Shown here one piece after another: positions 10,822 to 31,589 of a DNA stretch of 49,475 bases (position 1 is the stretch's first letter; every line of letters begins with the position of its first letter). This stretch comes from a virus (taxonomy: Duplodnaviria; Caudoviricetes). A program made the translations under genes and the position numbers. Under the pieces are notes generated by a model. It was not told where the DNA came from and ran no database searches. It was given only the letters and a program-made list of their open reading frames with translations. Where the stretch lies: the IMG/VR virus record IMGVR_UViG_3300017700_000528, positions 1 to 49,475 of that record. The stretch is one strand, 5' to 3'.

Positions 10822-11043
10822 TCCACGGATTTTCCACGGATCGGTGCGTCGTGTTCGCGTGGTGTTCTGCTTGAAACTGCCGGGTCGCTATCGTCGCAAT
10901 TGAAAAAATACGGCGATATGCGGGGCTTCCTGGTGCTGCCGGACAGGATTGAACTGTCGACCTCTCCCTTACCAAGGGAGTGCGCATCATTGTTTTTATT
11001 GTGCATTTTCGACTTCCTTGGCGTTTTCCACGGATTCTCCACC
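10822..11043. promoter_or_regulatory. attP region with putative integrase arm-type repeats
   Basis: TCCACGGA at 10822, 10833 and 11027, plus partial TCCACC at 11038; 11-bp spaced pairs on both sides of the core. Confidence 0.65.
10931..10983 (-). other. attP core: 3' half of tRNA-Thr(GGT)
   Basis: Reverse complement reads GCACTCCC-TTGGTAA-GGGAG-AGGTC-GACAG-TTCAATC-CTGTC-CGGCAGC-ACCA (anticodon arm, T arm, CCA); no D arm or 5' acceptor strand. Confidence 0.9.
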
Positions 11044-11322
11044 AAGGGCGCCATCGATCATCGCCCGCCACCACGCGACGTTAGATGAGTACGAATCCAT
11101 GTGTTTGATCGCACCATCCCACATGGCTGCCGTAGGCGTCCGCATCACTTCGATAGCGGCGCGGGCGCACGCCATGGAGTGGTTGACTTGTCCGGCCACG
11201 CTCTCCACCCATCCCTGGTCCAGCCTCTCCCCCGCCGCCTGTCGTTGGTGGATTTCCGCCAGGGCGACGAATGCCCACGGGTTGATGGCTCGGGCCACCT
11301 TTTCAATGGGAATTATATACAT
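10996..11322 (-). CDS. Phage protein interrupted near its start by the IS; possibly rescued by an ATG within the TIR
   Basis: Removing the IS and one TSD copy gives MTMIEKVARAINPW..., coupled by ATGA to the integrase stop. Confidence 0.6.
   Translation of the reverse strand: MYIIPIEKVARAINPWAFVALAEIHQRQAAGERLDQGWVESVAGQVNHSMACARAAIEVMRTPTAAMWDGAIKHMDSYSSNVAWWRAMIDGALGGESVENAKEVENAQ
11300..11307. repeat. 8-bp target-site duplication, left (TTTTCAAT)
   Basis: Identical to 13286-13293. Confidence 0.92.
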
Positions 11323-11340
11323 GACTCCCTTTTCCACAGT

Positions 11341-12168
11341 TCATACGCCACACGCCGCGCCGCATTCGTGGTCGAACAAATCCGCGCTCGCGACGGCAAG
11401 CGACAGGTCCGCCTCGGCGAGCGGAACGCGGCTGTGATGGAGGAACATTTCGCCATGGAATCGGGCGACTTGGGCGGGCTCTCTAAGCCAGCCATCAAAC
11501 TCGACGGTTTCAGCCCATTCGTCAGGGCTTTCCGACAGGTCGCGCCATCCGGCGTTACCTTGGAACGGGCAGTATTTGCAGCGCGACTTCGGTGGCCGTC
11601 GATACTGCCGTTCTTCAAGCCATGTGTAGCAGTTCTGACGGCTCATCCGCGCTTCAATCAAGATGTGCCGGTTGTGAATGAAGCGGCATCCGCTGGGCTT
11701 AATGCGCACGATCTCGTCAGTCGAAATTCCAACCCAACTTTCAACGCTGTCTGGCGCGACGTAGCCCCGCATACTGACGCCAAGAAGCTCGCGTATCTTT
11801 CGCCGGATCGGGCGAATCTTCCAATTGCGGGTACAGTTCCGGCCGCCCATTCCGCCCGGCCCAACGTGCCAGGGAATGCGCGCTGCATCGTCACCGGCCT
11901 TCAATGCACTGCGCAGCGAGCGCATCGGGTGGACGACGTGGATTGGGAACGGCAGTACGCCTGGGGAGCTGAGCCAAGCGAGATGTTCGTATACGGCCGC
12001 CGGTTCGTCTCCGGTGTCCGCGAAGATGGCGCAATCTGGCGCTTCGATCTCGCCTCGTGCCGCCATCAGCGCCAACGTTGTCGATTGGACGCCTGCACCC
12101 AGGCTCAGTACCCGCAATTTAGGCTTTGCCAGCGGGCGAGACAAACCGTCATGCCGAAGCTCAATCAC
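11341..12168 (-). CDS. PAPS-reductase-like (PP-loop) protein, IS cargo
   Basis: SLGAGVQS PP-loop, FADTGDE, CTRNWKI, GISTDE, KSRCKYCPF and terminal CGAACGV; GTG 12168 has a GGAGAAGG RBS. Confidence 0.8.
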   Translation of the reverse strand: MIELRHDGLSRPLAKPKLRVLSLGAGVQSTTLALMAARGEIEAPDCAIFADTGDEPAAVYEHLAWLSSPGVLPFPIHVVHPMRSLRSALKAGDDAARIPWHVGPGGMGGRNCTRNWKIRPIRRKIRELLGVSMRGYVAPDSVESWVGISTDEIVRIKPSGCRFIHNRHILIEARMSRQNCYTWLEERQYRRPPKSRCKYCPFQGNAGWRDLSESPDEWAETVEFDGWLREPAQVARFHGEMFLHHSRVPLAEADLSLAVASADLFDHECGAACGV

Positions 12169-12295
12169 GCGCCTTCTCCATTTTACGTTTGGCGCGTCTT
12201 CGTTTCTTTGCGGCAACGGAAATCGGCTTCGGCCTGTAGCGCAGCACCACATCCGCGATTGCGTTCAGAACCTTCGGCGGCTTGGGCTTCTTCAT
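12161..12295 (-). CDS. 44-aa basic protein, IS cargo
   Basis: MKKPKPPKVLNAIADVVLRYRPKPISVAAKKRRRAKRKMEKARD; overlaps the transposase stop (ATGA) and the cargo start. Confidence 0.65.
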   Translation of the reverse strand: MKKPKPPKVLNAIADVVLRYRPKPISVAAKKRRRAKRKMEKARD

Positions 12296-13215
12296 GCGAT
12301 CAGCGCCTTGTAGGTCAGGCGCTTGCCAGCAACGCCACTCACGAAGCTATCCAGCCGTTCCAGCGTGTGCCGAGCCACGTTGCCGTCATTGAGCCGGAAC
12401 GCAAATTCATCGACGTAGCGGCCAAGATGCTTCGCGCTGGCGTGATGGTAGACGCCGATCAACCCGCGCTTGAGAACGGCGAACACGGACTCGATGCTGT
12501 TCGTTGTGACGCCATCGCGGACGTATTCGCCGTCGCTGTGGTTCACACTTTCGTGGTCGAAGAACAGACCGCCCATCGCATGATATACGGCGGCTTCGTC
12601 GGTGTGCAGCATCGAACCGACCTCGACGTTCTGAACGATAACGTCTTGGATCGTCTGCGCGTCGGTACTGGCGAGCTTGACCGCCTTAACCCGCCCGCCT
12701 TTGCCGCGCTCTTTCATGCCGAGCACGGCGGTCTTGCCGACCGTGCCGCGACCTTGCTTGAGCTTCTTCGACTCGTGCTTGTTGGCCTCGATCCCGCCGA
12801 CATAGGTTTCGTCGATCTCGATCAACCCTTGCAGTTTGGTCAGGTCTTTGCCGCAAGCCTCGCGGAGCCGGTGCAGCATGAACCAAGCCGACTTTTGGGT
12901 AACGCCGATCTGCTTCGACAGTTGCAGGCTAGAGATACCCTTGCGGGCCGTCACAAGCAGGTACATCGCGTAAATCCACTTGTGCAGTGGAACGTGGCTC
13001 CGCTCGAAAATCGTCCCGGTGCGCACCGTAAAGTCTTCCTTGCACTGGTTGCAGCGATAGAAGCCGCCCGCCCGCGCCGTGATCCGCTCACCCAATCCGC
13101 AGACCGGGCAACGCGGGCCTTCCGGCCACAGCCGCCCCTCAAGATACGTCCGGGCCGTCTCTTGGTCCGGGAACATCTCGAAAAGCTGAAACGTCGAAAT
13201 AGTGCTCTTACTCAT
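12292..13215 (-). CDS. IS1595-family DDE transposase
   Basis: Zn ribbon CPVC..CNQC, GISSLQL HTH, EIDETYVGG, LHTDE, VNHS, TNSIES and YVDEFAFRLN. Confidence 0.95.
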   Translation of the reverse strand: MSKSTISTFQLFEMFPDQETARTYLEGRLWPEGPRCPVCGLGERITARAGGFYRCNQCKEDFTVRTGTIFERSHVPLHKWIYAMYLLVTARKGISSLQLSKQIGVTQKSAWFMLHRLREACGKDLTKLQGLIEIDETYVGGIEANKHESKKLKQGRGTVGKTAVLGMKERGKGGRVKAVKLASTDAQTIQDVIVQNVEVGSMLHTDEAAVYHAMGGLFFDHESVNHSDGEYVRDGVTTNSIESVFAVLKRGLIGVYHHASAKHLGRYVDEFAFRLNDGNVARHTLERLDSFVSGVAGKRLTYKALIA

Positions 13216-13243
13216 GACCAACAACCCCTTTGTTTATGGACAA

Positions 13244-13272
13244 AACATGCCCAAAACGTCCGAGGGAGTCAA
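13244..13272 (-). promoter_or_regulatory. Putative transposase promoter with -35 inside the TIR
   Basis: TTGACT-17 bp-CATGTT, then AAAGGGG 9 nt before ATG. Confidence 0.5.
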
Positions 13273-13285
13273 GTATATAATTCCC

Positions 13286-13293
13286 TTTTCAAT
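13286..13293. repeat. 8-bp target-site duplication, right (TTTTCAAT)
   Basis: Identical to 11300-11307. Confidence 0.92.
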
Positions 13294-13298
13294 CATCG

Positions 13299-14279
13299 TC
13301 ATGCCTTCCTCGCCTTCGGTGTGGGCAGCATCGCCGCCCGTTTGCTTTCCTCACTCACGACAGAATGCACGTAGCGATCGACCGACTTCCGGTCCCTCCA
13401 TGCGCCAGTCGCAATCAGGGTCGCGCTGTCGGCGCCTGCGAACCGCCTCATCCACGTCGCGTATGTGTGACGAAAGATGTGGAATGCGGATCGCCCGGGA
13501 AGGTTGACGCCGGCTTTGAATGAGCATGTCTTGAGAAGCGAATAGAGATGGCCGCCCTTGGCGAAGCCTAATACTCGACCTTCATCTCCTGCCAAGTTTC
13601 CCAGCGCAGCCACGGCCACCGGCGGGAGAAAGACAGCTCGCGGTTCGTCGTTTTTCGTGTCCGGTATATAGGCGTATCCATCAGCGAGCCTCACGTTGTC
13701 CCATGTCAAATTCAACGCTTCACTGAGGCGCAAACCAGTATAGCACAGCACAATCAGTAGCGCCTCGAACTCTTTGTCGATCTTCCCAGCTTCTTCAAAG
13801 ATCGCTTCGGTTTGTTCAGGCCAGAGCCAGGCCGTTGCACGGTTACCGCTGCTCCCTCGGGGTCGACGTAGCTCAAGTCGATGTCCAGCATGACGCAGCA
13901 CTGCACTAACCGGAGTGTACACCTGTCGATTTCTCGTAGCAGCGCTGGCGCTCGGGTAGAGCGAAACTGCTGCCTTATCGAGGGCGTCTTGGTCGAACTC
14001 TTTGAGCGGCTTGTCACCGAAATGCTCCAATAGCTTTTTCAGAAACCGGCGATCCCCGCCCAGGTTTATGTAACTGACTGCGACACTCGCGAACGTCTCG
14101 TCTGTCGGGCTGGCATAGGAACCACGTTCGATTTCCTGCTCCCACTTTCGGAGGATCTGGACGGCGACGGTTCGCTTGCCAACCTTAGTGCTTCGGTCAA
14201 CGCGGACCCCGATGTACGTCCCCTTGACGGACCAGAACGGCGATTTCCCTTTACGCGGCGGGATGAGCTTAAGCGGCAT
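13299..14279 (-). CDS. int: Tyrosine integrase
   Basis: TGLRLSEAL, TKN, HIFRHTYATW, GAW and RY catalytic motifs. Confidence 0.93.
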   Translation of the reverse strand: MPLKLIPPRKGKSPFWSVKGTYIGVRVDRSTKVGKRTVAVQILRKWEQEIERGSYASPTDETFASVAVSYINLGGDRRFLKKLLEHFGDKPLKEFDQDALDKAAVSLYPSASAATRNRQVYTPVSAVLRHAGHRLELRRPRGSSGNRATAWLWPEQTEAIFEEAGKIDKEFEALLIVLCYTGLRLSEALNLTWDNVRLADGYAYIPDTKNDEPRAVFLPPVAVAALGNLAGDEGRVLGFAKGGHLYSLLKTCSFKAGVNLPGRSAFHIFRHTYATWMRRFAGADSATLIATGAWRDRKSVDRYVHSVVSEESKRAAMLPTPKARKA

Positions 14280-14474: not shown

Positions 14475-14621
14475 CTACTTATTTGGCGTCTGTGTAGCTT
14501 TGCGGGCGTTGGCCAGCGCCGCTGCGATCAGCGCATCAGGCCGCGCCATCGGACGCGGCCATGGGCCGACGTATTCGTACCAACCTGGCCGTCCGGGTAT
14601 TTCCCGCCAGTTGTCGTTCAT
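14475..14621 (-). CDS. 48-aa hypothetical protein
   Basis: Fills the gap; ATGA overlap with the methyltransferase stop. Confidence 0.5.
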   Translation of the reverse strand: MNDNWREIPGRPGWYEYVGPWPRPMARPDALIAAALANARKATQTPNK

Positions 14622-15163
14622 GCGGCCATCTCCAATTGCTGCTCGGTTTTCCGATAGACCGCATAGAGCCGGATCCGCTTCTGCGGCCCGTTCATGACCC
14701 CCACGACGCCCCAGAGCTTCACGGGGATCCGCTTTGACGGTGGGATGAACTCGTGGAGCAGGCCGATCTTGCCGCCGGTTTTGGTCACGCGCGCCAGTTC
14801 AGCCAGGATTTTGGTGGCCGAGACGTAGGGCAGGCCGTACCGCTCAGAGTCCTTGGGCGAGTATGGAGGATCCGCAAATGCGGCATCGAAGGACTGATCG
14901 GCGAAGGGCAGGCTGGCCCCCAGCGCCACCACAGACGGCCGCGTGGTCGCGTTGCCGTCTACGGTGATAATCCCGTCCTCGGGCGGCATGGTCCCGCTGA
15001 ACCAATGCACCATGGATCCGTAGGGCCGCAGCAGTTGCTTGGCGCGTGGCCAGAACCCCTGCGGGAAGGATCCGTAATACTTCTTCATTGGCCGCCCACA
15101 GAACCACGTTCCATGGACCCAGCCATTTTCCAGCACAGTGTAGGGGGGTAGCGGTGCGTTCAT
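14618..15163 (-). CDS. Small SAM-dependent (N6A/N4C-type) methyltransferase
   Basis: YYGSFP, HWFSG, LPFADQSFDAAFADPPY and ARVTKTGG. Confidence 0.75.
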   Translation of the reverse strand: MNAPLPPYTVLENGWVHGTWFCGRPMKKYYGSFPQGFWPRAKQLLRPYGSMVHWFSGTMPPEDGIITVDGNATTRPSVVALGASLPFADQSFDAAFADPPYSPKDSERYGLPYVSATKILAELARVTKTGGKIGLLHEFIPPSKRIPVKLWGVVGVMNGPQKRIRLYAVYRKTEQQLEMAA

Positions 15164-29667: not shown

Positions 29668-30260
29668 TGCCCGTTCTCAGCAATCCCCGTCACGAGCGCT
29701 TCGCTCAGGAACTGGCTAAGGGCACCTCAGCATCAGAGGCCTATGAGCTTGCGGGTTACAAACCAAACCGCGGCAACGCGACAACACTAAAGCAGGACCA
29801 AAGCATTTCAATCCGAGTGGCTGAACTACTCCAGGAGCGTGAACAGATACACGCCCAAGCCACAGCGGAGGCTGTAGAGCGCGCTGGGCTGACTAAGGAG
29901 TGGGTTATTGAGCGGCTGACAACGGTCGCTGAGCGGGCGCTGCAAGCCAAGCCAGTGCTTAACCGCAAGGGTGAGCCTGTGATGGTTGAAACTCCTGCCG
30001 GAATGATGGCGCCGGCTTTTGTGTTTGACAGCTCGGGCGCAAACCGCAGTCTCGAACTGCTCGGCAAGGAGCTGGGCATGTTTGTGGATAGGTCAGAGGA
30101 TGTTACTTCCAAGCGACATATCGACCAGATTGACGCCCGCATTAATCAGCTCCTTGGCGATCGAGGAGAAGGAAGAGCTGCTGAGCCTTCTGGAGGAACG
30201 GGAACAGGTTCTCAAGGAGACGAAGCTATTCCAACTGTACCCGGCCACGGGACCGCTTAG
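29667..30260 (+). CDS. terS: Terminase small subunit
   Basis: L.NPRHERFAQ..AKG....AY..AGY and ANRSLELLGKELGMF. Confidence 0.88.
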   Translation: MPVLSNPRHERFAQELAKGTSASEAYELAGYKPNRGNATTLKQDQSISIRVAELLQEREQIHAQATAEAVERAGLTKEWVIERLTTVAERALQAKPVLNRKGEPVMVETPAGMMAPAFVFDSSGANRSLELLGKELGMFVDRSEDVTSKRHIDQIDARINQLLGDRGEGRAAEPSGGTGTGSQGDEAIPTVPGHGTA

Positions 30261-30855
30261 GCGTGAGCTATACGCTAAGCATCTGGCTTTTTTTCGTGCT
30301 GGCTCCACGTACATGGAGCGGGCTTGCATCGCAGCAAACCGCGTCGGCAAAACTTGGGGCATAGGCGGTTACGAGACCACGCTGCACCTGACGGGTGAGT
30401 ATCCCGATTGGTGGGATGGGCGGCGGTTCGATAGCCCGATTGAGGCATGGGCTGCTGGCGACACGTCGGAAACGACGCGAGATATCGTCCAGCAGGCTTT
30501 GATGGGGCCGCTTGGTGACCTTGGGACTGGGTTGCTACCGGCGGCGAATATAATCGGTGAACCGACCAAGCGCGCTGGTGTTGCCGGGGCAATGGACACG
30601 GGGCGCATCCGGCACAAGTCGGGCGGCGTCTCACTGGTTGGGTTCAAGTCATACGATCAGGGGCGGAAGAAGTTCCAGGGCACCGCGAAGCATGTTTGCT
30701 GGTGCGACGAGGAGCCGCCGGCTGATGTTTACGACGAGATGATGCTGCGGCTGATGACGACGGACGGGATCATGCTCGGGACGTTCACGCCATTGAGTGG
30801 CCTGTCGCAGATCGTGTTGCGGTTCCTGCCTGAGATGGCACCGGAGGTTTCGTGA
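30100..30855 (+). CDS. terL: Terminase large subunit, ATPase part
   Basis: AANRVGKT Walker A, FKSYDQGR, WCDEEP Walker B and TFTP motif III; start uncertain. Confidence 0.88.
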   Translation: MLLPSDISTRLTPALISSLAIEEKEELLSLLEEREQVLKETKLFQLYPATGPLRRELYAKHLAFFRAGSTYMERACIAANRVGKTWGIGGYETTLHLTGEYPDWWDGRRFDSPIEAWAAGDTSETTRDIVQQALMGPLGDLGTGLLPAANIIGEPTKRAGVAGAMDTGRIRHKSGGVSLVGFKSYDQGRKKFQGTAKHVCWCDEEPPADVYDEMMLRLMTTDGIMLGTFTPLSGLSQIVLRFLPEMAPEVS

Positions 30856-31589
30856 GCCGATACGCCCAGCAAATCGAGTGGGACGACGTTCCGCACCTCT
30901 CGAAGGACCAGAAGGACAAGCTCCTTGACTCAATCCCTCCACACCAGAGGGACGCTCGCACAAAGGGCATCCCGGTTCTGGGCGCGGGTCAAATCTACCC
31001 GGTGGCTGAATCGGCCGTCATCGTTGACCCGTTTCAGATCCCCCAGTTCTGGCCGCGTGCTTACGGTCTTGACGTTGGATGGAACAGAACAGCGGGTATC
31101 TGGGGTGCATGGGACCGTGATAGCGATACGGTCTATCTCTACTCCGAGCACTACGCCGGCCAGCAGCCCCCCAGCGTCCATGCTGATGCGATTAAGGCGC
31201 GGGGCGATTGGATGTCAGGTGCGATCGATCCTGCAAGCGCAGGGGCGAACCAGAAAGACGGTACGACTCTCATCGGCGAGTACCAGGCGCTAGGGCTCAA
31301 TCTGCACCCGGCCGACAACTCGGTCGAGGCGGGGCTCATGGCCTGCTACCAGCGCTTGGCATCTGGCCGCCTCAAGATATTCAAGACGCTCCGCAATACG
31401 ATCACGGAACTGCGCATCTACCGCAGGGACGAGAACGGCAAGATTGTCAAAGAGAACGACCACGCGATGGACGCCATGCGCTACCTGATCATGACCGGGA
31501 TGATGCTGGCGAGCGTTGAGCCTGCGGCCATGGAAGAACTGGAAGACCGCTTGCAGCAGCGCGGCCGTTCAAGCGTGACGGGGTATTGA
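30852..31589 (+). CDS. terL: Terminase large subunit, nuclease part
   Basis: WDDVPHL, GLDVGW, IDP and NDHAMDAMRY; own GGAGG RBS. Confidence 0.88.
   Translation: MSRYAQQIEWDDVPHLSKDQKDKLLDSIPPHQRDARTKGIPVLGAGQIYPVAESAVIVDPFQIPQFWPRAYGLDVGWNRTAGIWGAWDRDSDTVYLYSEHYAGQQPPSVHADAIKARGDWMSGAIDPASAGANQKDGTTLIGEYQALGLNLHPADNSVEAGLMACYQRLASGRLKIFKTLRNTITELRIYRRDENGKIVKENDHAMDAMRYLIMTGMMLASVEPAAMEELEDRLQQRGRSSVTGY

Follow-up and report, generated by a model that had tools for sequence, protein, structure and literature searches.

The phage genome in IMG/VR record IMGVR_UViG_3300017700_000528 (Duplodnaviria; Caudoviricetes), whose full 49,475 nucleotides are referred to here as the window, carries at 11308-13285 an intact IS1595-family element of 1,978 bp, bounded by inverted ends and an 8-bp target duplication. 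We interpret it as an IS1595 transporter insertion sequence (tIS) with what is likely a two-gene core, formed by a DDE transposase and its predicted binding partner, together with a swappable passenger that likely modifies DNA, and we place the probability of this interpretation at roughly 0.6. It is built on the observed ends, 8-bp duplication and AT-rich targets, on reading frames that are coupled, on the association of the small gene with the transposase and on the turnover of cargo at gene boundaries. Passenger-carrying IS1595 elements are an already known kind, and this one is a real, intact and ordinary member of its family; the new part likely lies at the family level, in a second transposition gene and in the slot-wise capture of phage genes biased to DNA modification. 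A broader picture, which we propose tentatively and as somewhat less probable than even, is that of a widespread phage-enriched IS1595 clade with a two-subunit transposase (DDE subunit plus a DNA-binding cofactor of 40-50 aa) and an expression cassette that takes up whole phage genes at codon boundaries, among them, time and again, DNA-modifying counter-defence enzymes, and that has spread across phages and bacterial phyla.

Boundaries, genes and relatives of the element

The element and its duplicated target are composed as follows:

13286..13293, no strand: target-site duplication, left copy TTTTCAAT, exact match to 11300-11307
13263..13285, minus: left terminal inverted repeat, with a -35-like hexamer TTGACT at 13272-13267
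13244..13249, minus: predicted -10 hexamer CATGTT, 17 bp from the left-repeat -35; likely promoter of the three-gene operon
12292..13215, minus: IS1595-family DDE transposase, 307 aa, with Zn ribbon, helix-turn-helix (HTH) region and D135/D206/E242
12161..12295, minus: 44-aa accessory protein with an amphipathic helix and a basic tail; predicted to be a partner of the transposase
11341..12168, minus: passenger, 275-aa PP-loop protein (phosphoadenosine phosphosulfate (PAPS)-reductase-like, phrog_424), with 7 invariant Cys
11308..11330, plus: right terminal inverted repeat; one difference removes the inward -35 and creates an outward ATG at 11322
11300..11307, no strand: target-site duplication, right copy

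The inverted ends 11308-11330 and 13263-13285 are identical at 22 of 23 positions, and the three genes follow each other on the minus strand with successive overlaps, the 44-aa open reading frame (ORF) overlapping the transposase stop by 4 nt and the GTG start of the passenger overlapping the stop of the accessory gene. The repeats, the exact duplication and the three overlapping genes, all announced in an earlier sequence-only reading, are confirmed from the sequence. GC content is 0.59 both within the element and around it. A 757-codon plus-strand ORF across the element was discarded: 64 of 97 relatives also have it open over the transposase, which marks it as a shadow frame. Rfam gave no matches at E 0.1.

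The transposase matched PF12762 (E 5e-44) and NF033547 (202 bits against a cut-off of 75), its N-terminal Zn ribbon matched PF12760 (E 3e-9), and both the ribbon cysteines C36, C39, C55 and C58 and the catalytic D135, D206 and E242 were invariant in 77 aligned rows. An intact DDE domain, an N-terminal Zn ribbon, inverted repeats and an 8-bp duplication thus occur together, as expected of the IS1595 family, and the element may belong to the ISNwi-type (ISNwi1) group. By sequence, neither a solved relative of the transposase or of the small protein nor a comparable complex was found; the solved folds nearest to the transposase were those of retroviral integrases and ISCth4 (TM ~0.3).

A search of viral contigs with the transposase gave 182 relatives, the best 80 of which (62-90% identity) were fetched. 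Among these and the window, 65 of the 81 loci showed both ends, and 47 of the 65 an exact 8-bp duplication, while random pairing of flanks matched in 0.46% of cases, no more than draws from the same element account for, so that the duplication is not due to chance. An estimated 400 stored stretches of viral contigs contain the exact end pattern, as do an estimated 370 from bacterial and archaeal genomes (596 Gb), the titles of the latter, mostly metagenome-assembled genomes, spanning at least 8 phyla. Even if the 2.9 million viral contigs averaged 50 kb, the viral density would be ~4 times the genomic one, with habitat and assembly biases uncontrolled. We pooled 157 end-bounded elements (103 viral and 54 genomic, 110 of them with exact duplications), which fell into 150 clusters at 95% identity; a tree from a quick search was used for neighbours only. 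Autonomous copies measured 1,275-3,477 bp (76 elements) and the target duplications were 83% A+T. One cargo-bearing sister cluster (L019/L020/L021/L237) was found at four different targets, which means that this sister element moved with its cargo as a unit. The window element itself may likewise move as a unit, the signs of this being its own duplication and one diverged, contig-cut relative (L083); no second copy was found.

The expectation that relatives share ends, transposase and basic ORF with variable cargo was borne out across the delimited elements. The further proposal that the transposon shuttles modification genes of phage type between phages stands as far as a moving cargo unit is concerned, and is too narrow in its confinement to phages: the end is shared by those ~370 stretches of bacterial genomes, and most sampled flanks of such copies carry no phage structural genes. 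When 104 flanking ORFs from 28 genomic loci were compared with PHROGs, 4 integrases and 1 endolysin-labelled hit were obtained, and a residence of the chromosomal copies in prophages was rejected, with no capsid, portal or terminase among these ORFs (the longest only, some frames possibly wrong). Among 50,697 records of cultured phages 4 matched the transposase, none above 37%. Literature on this clade or its small gene was not found, and as coverage of subscription papers was partial, absence from print is not established.

A -35-like hexamer occurs in 70 of 97 left ends and 24 of 97 right ends, and a -10 signature (A at position 2, T at position 6) follows 17 bp onward in 51 of 97 left and 2 of 97 right ends, so a promoter with its -35 inside the left repeat may drive all three genes; a strict consensus promoter scan did not call it. 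With the putative -35 in this repeat, transposase bound there would cover the promoter and so limit its own production. The window element's ends differ at a single position, which abolishes the inward -35 at the right and is a trait of the family, not decay. A rescue of interrupted genes by the right-end ATG does not hold up as a family trait, since 3 of 24 such ends opened at least 80 codons, against 5 and 3 in the other frames. In transposase-less cassettes (L170, L181, L191, L215, L234, L322, L341, L352 and others) the cargo begins at the end-repeat ATG, its N-terminus reading MTP, and therefore the end itself supplies the start codon.

The 44-aa accessory protein

The small gene was detected, with a profile seeded from 10 of the counted elements, in 71 of 80 autonomous elements whose duplication agrees at 7 or more of 8 positions (52 of 55 viral, 19 of 25 genomic), and in 1 of 33 transposase-less cassettes (1 of 16 viral, 0 of 17 genomic). 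It is retained even where cargo separates it from the transposase, and is often the last gene, with no cargo behind. Over 470 loci the profile gave 177 matches, 154 of them within 1.5 kb behind a transposase, 17 in loci too short to tell and 6 not behind a transposase. Codon-position entropies of 1.09/0.98/1.62 over 78 copies indicate that the gene is under selection at the protein level, and L10, D15, V17, L18, Y20 and P22 are conserved in the helix. No Pfam, PHROG, NCBIfam or PDB family was found for the protein, and the Atlas returned unnamed clusters only. The basic ORF tracks the transposase and is lost from transposase-less cassettes; it is likely better read as a second transposition gene than as a passenger.

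Structure prediction points in the same direction. The complex of small protein and transposase scored 0.84, against 0.00 for the best of 3 controls, with helix residues 9-22 of the small protein contacting transposase residues 24-29, 58-72, 81-89 and 116-121; the runs shared at least 79% of contacts, at a partner pLDDT of at least 75. Of the solved pairs 116 of 157 attained the mark used, as did 2 of 215 mismatched ones, a benchmark that is only roughly valid with alignments made here. Hence the small protein is predicted to bind the N-terminal domain of the transposase, a binding that the model supports but does not show. The helix would lie in a hydrophobic groove of the Zn-ribbon/HTH domain, with the basic tail as an additional DNA-binding part. 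If true, a small bound cofactor would revise the picture of assembly and regulation for this IS1595/Merlin branch.

In our view the small protein is modestly more likely to assist the binding of ends or targets than to inhibit transposition. An inhibitor, which would act on the N-terminal domain to limit damage to the phage, perhaps in competition with one of the transposase's own helices, we consider doubtful. It could draw on the modelled contact with a predicted DNA-binding domain, and on the lower pLDDT of the transposase in the complex (69-70, compared with 79-80 with unrelated partners), but such a shift is no evidence of displacement, and the basic tail suits DNA binding at least equally well. 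Similarly, the best match of the small-protein profile on the transposase falls on C-terminal helix 286-295, but with a probability of 0.4% and E 0.16 it is not significant, and mimicry of that helix was discarded.

Two further observations concern the same pair of proteins. As regards fusions of the small protein to the transposase N-terminus, 19 of 24 longer hits carry the Zn ribbon, but those that were read resemble ordinary elements with in-frame deletions, and they were not used as Rosetta-stone support. Many such in-frame deletion forms (P0002-P0023) consist of the transposase DNA-binding N-terminus and the small protein without the DDE domain, and could be repressors or dead ends.

The passenger and the cargo slots

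The passenger, which ends at 11341, matched phrog_424 (E 9e-37) and most likely starts at GTG 12168, giving 275 aa, and not at ATG 12252, since the alignments with its closest homologues begin at the former. Against Pfam and NCBIfam it gave no hits, PF01507 and the CysH equivalog included. Seven cysteines are invariant in 56 rows, and the AlphaFold2 model (pLDDT 90) adopts a PP-loop (adenine-nucleotide alpha-hydrolase-like) fold, for which Foldseek placed LarE, CysH, GMP synthetase and tRNA thiolases about equally (E ~1e-4, TM ~0.42). In 79 of 80 homologue loci the gene occurs without the ends and the transposase, only L083 having the element, and it is therefore normally a free phage gene. 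Between the window and L083 the synonymous (dS) and non-synonymous (dN) divergences were 1.05 and 0.19 for the transposase and 1.29 and 0.17 for the passenger, so the two genes have diverged to about the same extent; the latter values place the passenger under purifying selection, and the pairing of transposase and cargo, shared at dS ~1.0-1.3, looks old. The cargos of sister elements L003 and L341 matched PDB 21fy, 'PptA', at E 1e-31 and 3e-58, respectively. The passenger aligned to PptA directly at E 0.14, and its profile to L341 with 95% probability (E 2e-8); its lack of a methylase domain and this direct E-value assign it to a different subfamily from PptA, on which no paper was found.

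We consider it probable that the passenger is a DNA modification or counter-defence enzyme, which would adenylate and sulfurate, or otherwise mark, DNA, so that the phage would pass host restriction. In one report, a fusion of PAPS domain and methylase in Vibrio phage p0018, together with a neighbouring gene, confers escape from Dnd (10.1101/2021.05.05.442762). Other works diverge: phage PAPS reductases are read as DndC/SspD homologues (PMC13551039), their role is left open, possibly beyond sulfur metabolism (PMC11437467), or they are argued to be true metabolic genes (PMC13369170).

The company that the passenger keeps in its relatives bears on this question. Three cargo slots were recognized, one upstream of the transposase, another between the transposase and the small gene and the third behind the small gene, and backbones 88-97% identical diverge at the transposase ATG, the transposase stop or the leader. 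Judged from these alignments, cargo is exchanged at gene boundaries, that is, at start and stop codons. Passengers would probably be captured from phage accessory regions through recombination at short similarities of start, stop or ribosome sites, and kept if expressed. Of 225 predicted cargo ORFs, the 119 longer ones were run against Pfam and 79 against PHROGs; 41 of the 119 had a Pfam family, which in 26 cases was DNA methyltransferase, Mom, PTPS or PAPS, and PHROGs added 4 PAPS-like (phrog_424) ORFs. Labelled per element, modification-type cargo (methyltransferase, Mom, PAPS-like) occupies the slot behind the small gene in 12 of 22 viral elements, and is found in 6 of 8 genomic elements in which the small gene is fused or missing. 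Four PAPS-like subfamilies with 20-33% mutual identity use the same slot, which points to separate captures. The earlier view of modification genes as the cargo consequently applies to the viral downstream slot, and not to the cargo overall, which consists mostly of small genes without assigned function.

These data bear on a simpler explanation, namely an ordinary tIS in which the small ORF is a translation-coupling leader or an old fixed passenger and the cargo a neutral sample of accessory genes. That seven elements (L069, L080, L320, L333, L339, L361, L364) have the small-ORF helix as the N-terminus of their cargo, that most cargo genes are small and unassigned, and that the passenger gene is nearly always element-free would all suit it, but a leader or relic would hardly be found so often in last position and lost from cargo-only cassettes, nor be conserved residue by residue in a helix that docks on the transposase in the model, and a neutral sample would not readily bring four unrelated PAPS-like subfamilies into one slot; we regard it as unlikely. 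Weaker still, and in our opinion rather improbable, is a true sulfonucleotide reductase, a CysH-like auxiliary metabolic gene feeding host sulfur assimilation, which could appeal to the phrog_424 annotation, to CysH chains among the top Foldseek matches and to the metabolic role argued in PMC13369170, but is opposed by the missing PF01507 and NCBIfam hits, by an identity to CysH of 13-17% at a TM no better than for LarE, GMP synthetase or tRNA thiolases, by the methyltransferases and Mom that otherwise occupy the slot, and by the DndC/SspD-like or wider roles read in PMC13551039 and PMC11437467.

Several facts weigh against a two-gene core with a DNA-modifying passenger. The fold matches of the passenger are weak (TM ~0.4) and do not separate a reductase from a sulfur transferase, and the Dnd-escape precedent concerns a different, methylase-fused protein. 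No Pfam family was found for 78 of the 119 cargo ORFs, and the modification bias is limited to one viral slot, with 1 of 43 in the viral upstream slot and 0 of 14 in the genomic downstream slot. As regards the small gene, 9 of 80 autonomous elements have no detectable copy, several others have it fused to the cargo with the basic tail absent, and the profile had 0 matches in six plasmid IS1595 loci that are only distantly related (transposase identity 37-45%); the complex mark, a score of model confidence only, was, by the tool's own account, also passed by 7 of 44 blindly picked neighbours. The lack of a second copy and of an empty-site relative of the window element adds to these points. The family would also constitute a route for methyltransferase, Mom-like and PAPS-reductase-like genes among uncultured phages, with a cargo company that bears on whether phage 'PAPS reductases' are metabolic or DNA-modifying counter-defence genes.

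Other cargo types deserve mention. Elements L069, L333 and L361 carry a methyltransferase with Vsr and/or an uncharacterized gene, resembling restriction-modification operons, and form one branch with L320, L339 and L364, throughout which the small-protein helix is fused to the methyltransferase N-terminus. A mostly chromosomal branch (L014, L228, L319, L323, L342, L350, L375, L386, L390) bears proteins of 240-390 aa that seem to be membrane-bound, belong to no Pfam or PHROG family and are defence candidates. TnpB/Cas12f-like genes lie between family ends without a transposase at L325:1327-2562 and L384:4862-5983.

Insertion site and known systems

The window is a complete circular phage genome with a 123-bp terminal repeat, encoding terminase, portal, capsid, endolysin, an Erf-like annealing protein and integrase. 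The element begins 6 bp beyond the stop codon of the integrase (13299), and a tRNA-Thr(GGT)-like fragment is found ~320 bp away. The neighbouring features are:

13299..14279, minus: tyrosine integrase
10996..11307, minus: small phage gene interrupted by the insertion, its frame still open from the right-repeat ATG
~10931..10981, minus: tRNA-Thr(GGT)-like 3' fragment, likely attP core

Among the 13 integrase relatives examined, 4 have the fragment 54-175 nt behind the integrase match, for which reason it is likely the attP core; 86-96% matches to it stand directly behind the integrase in L447-L450, and ARAGORN found no whole tRNA there. When the element is excised in silico together with one copy of the duplication, a 104-aa ORF reappears, and its start agrees with that of L463, a homologue of the interrupted gene at 40% identity, and the original start codons are stranded at 13302 and 13296, so the insertion landed just after the start codons of this small gene.

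The insertion had been called recent. As an insertion it is attested by the exact duplication, and its recency is not supported: no empty-site relative was found, and age cannot be read from the ends, because family members usually have exact duplications and share the end mismatch. Empty sites were sought in vain among relatives of the integrase (16, at 23-68% identity) and in the one homologue found for the interrupted gene, all too distant, among metagenome contigs with a 24-nt flank pattern (1 match, L464, a contig as long as the window), and in contigs of one DNA run carrying the region, which had no joint deleting the element (contigs drop rare variants); no RNA runs carrying the region were listed. 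A contig of run X1 joins 11330 to 13264, so that a single base separates the two inverted ends; this may be a minimal element of 46 bp that belongs to another organism in the sample, with sides of 22 nt only. Elsewhere in the window, a second gene of modification type, for a phrog_3816 DNA methyltransferase (14618-15163, minus), is located immediately upstream of the genes for the excisionase-like protein and the integrase, and the large terminase consists of two overlapping plus-strand ORFs, 30019-30855 (Terminase_6N ATPase half) and 30852-31589 (Terminase_6C nuclease half), which could reflect a naturally split gene, a frameshift site or a mistake in the assembly.

Among known proteins, the passenger resembles the anti-Dnd protein of Vibrio phage p0018 and PptA in PHROG label phrog_424 or fold class, and differs from those phage PAPS-reductase-like proteins in having no methylase domain. 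With CysH, LarE and NcsA/TtuA it shares a predicted PP-loop fold and richness in Cys, unlike them reaching no family cut-off, with 12-19% identity and TM ~0.4. Among elements, tISCpe8 is reportedly, by the title cited for it, a lincomycin-resistance element, and Siguier, Gagnevin and Chandler (2009) are said to be the source for the IS1595 tIS. In PMC5704250, MTnSag1 and tISCpe8 agree with the window element in IS1595 transposase, ends of ~25 bp, 8-bp duplication and passenger, but are conjugation-mobilised and from Firmicutes, whereas the window element resides in a phage and carries an enzyme cargo and no resistance gene. As defined in 10.1101/2021.05.26.445724, a tIS holds a passenger gene inside an IS-like structure with a single transposase gene, and an N-terminal Zn ribbon is described in PMC8101967 for all IS1595 groups except IS1016. 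The window element conforms in its DDE transposase with N-terminal Zn ribbon, its short ends starting GG, its 8-bp duplication and its internal passenger, a 275-aa gene within the ends whose homologues stand free in phages at 79 of 80 loci. Unlike a tIS of this description, its family pairs the transposase with a second, small and conserved gene whose product is predicted to bind it, exchanges cargo almost one for one in three slots, is frequent in uncultured phages and includes transposase-less cassettes with the same ends.

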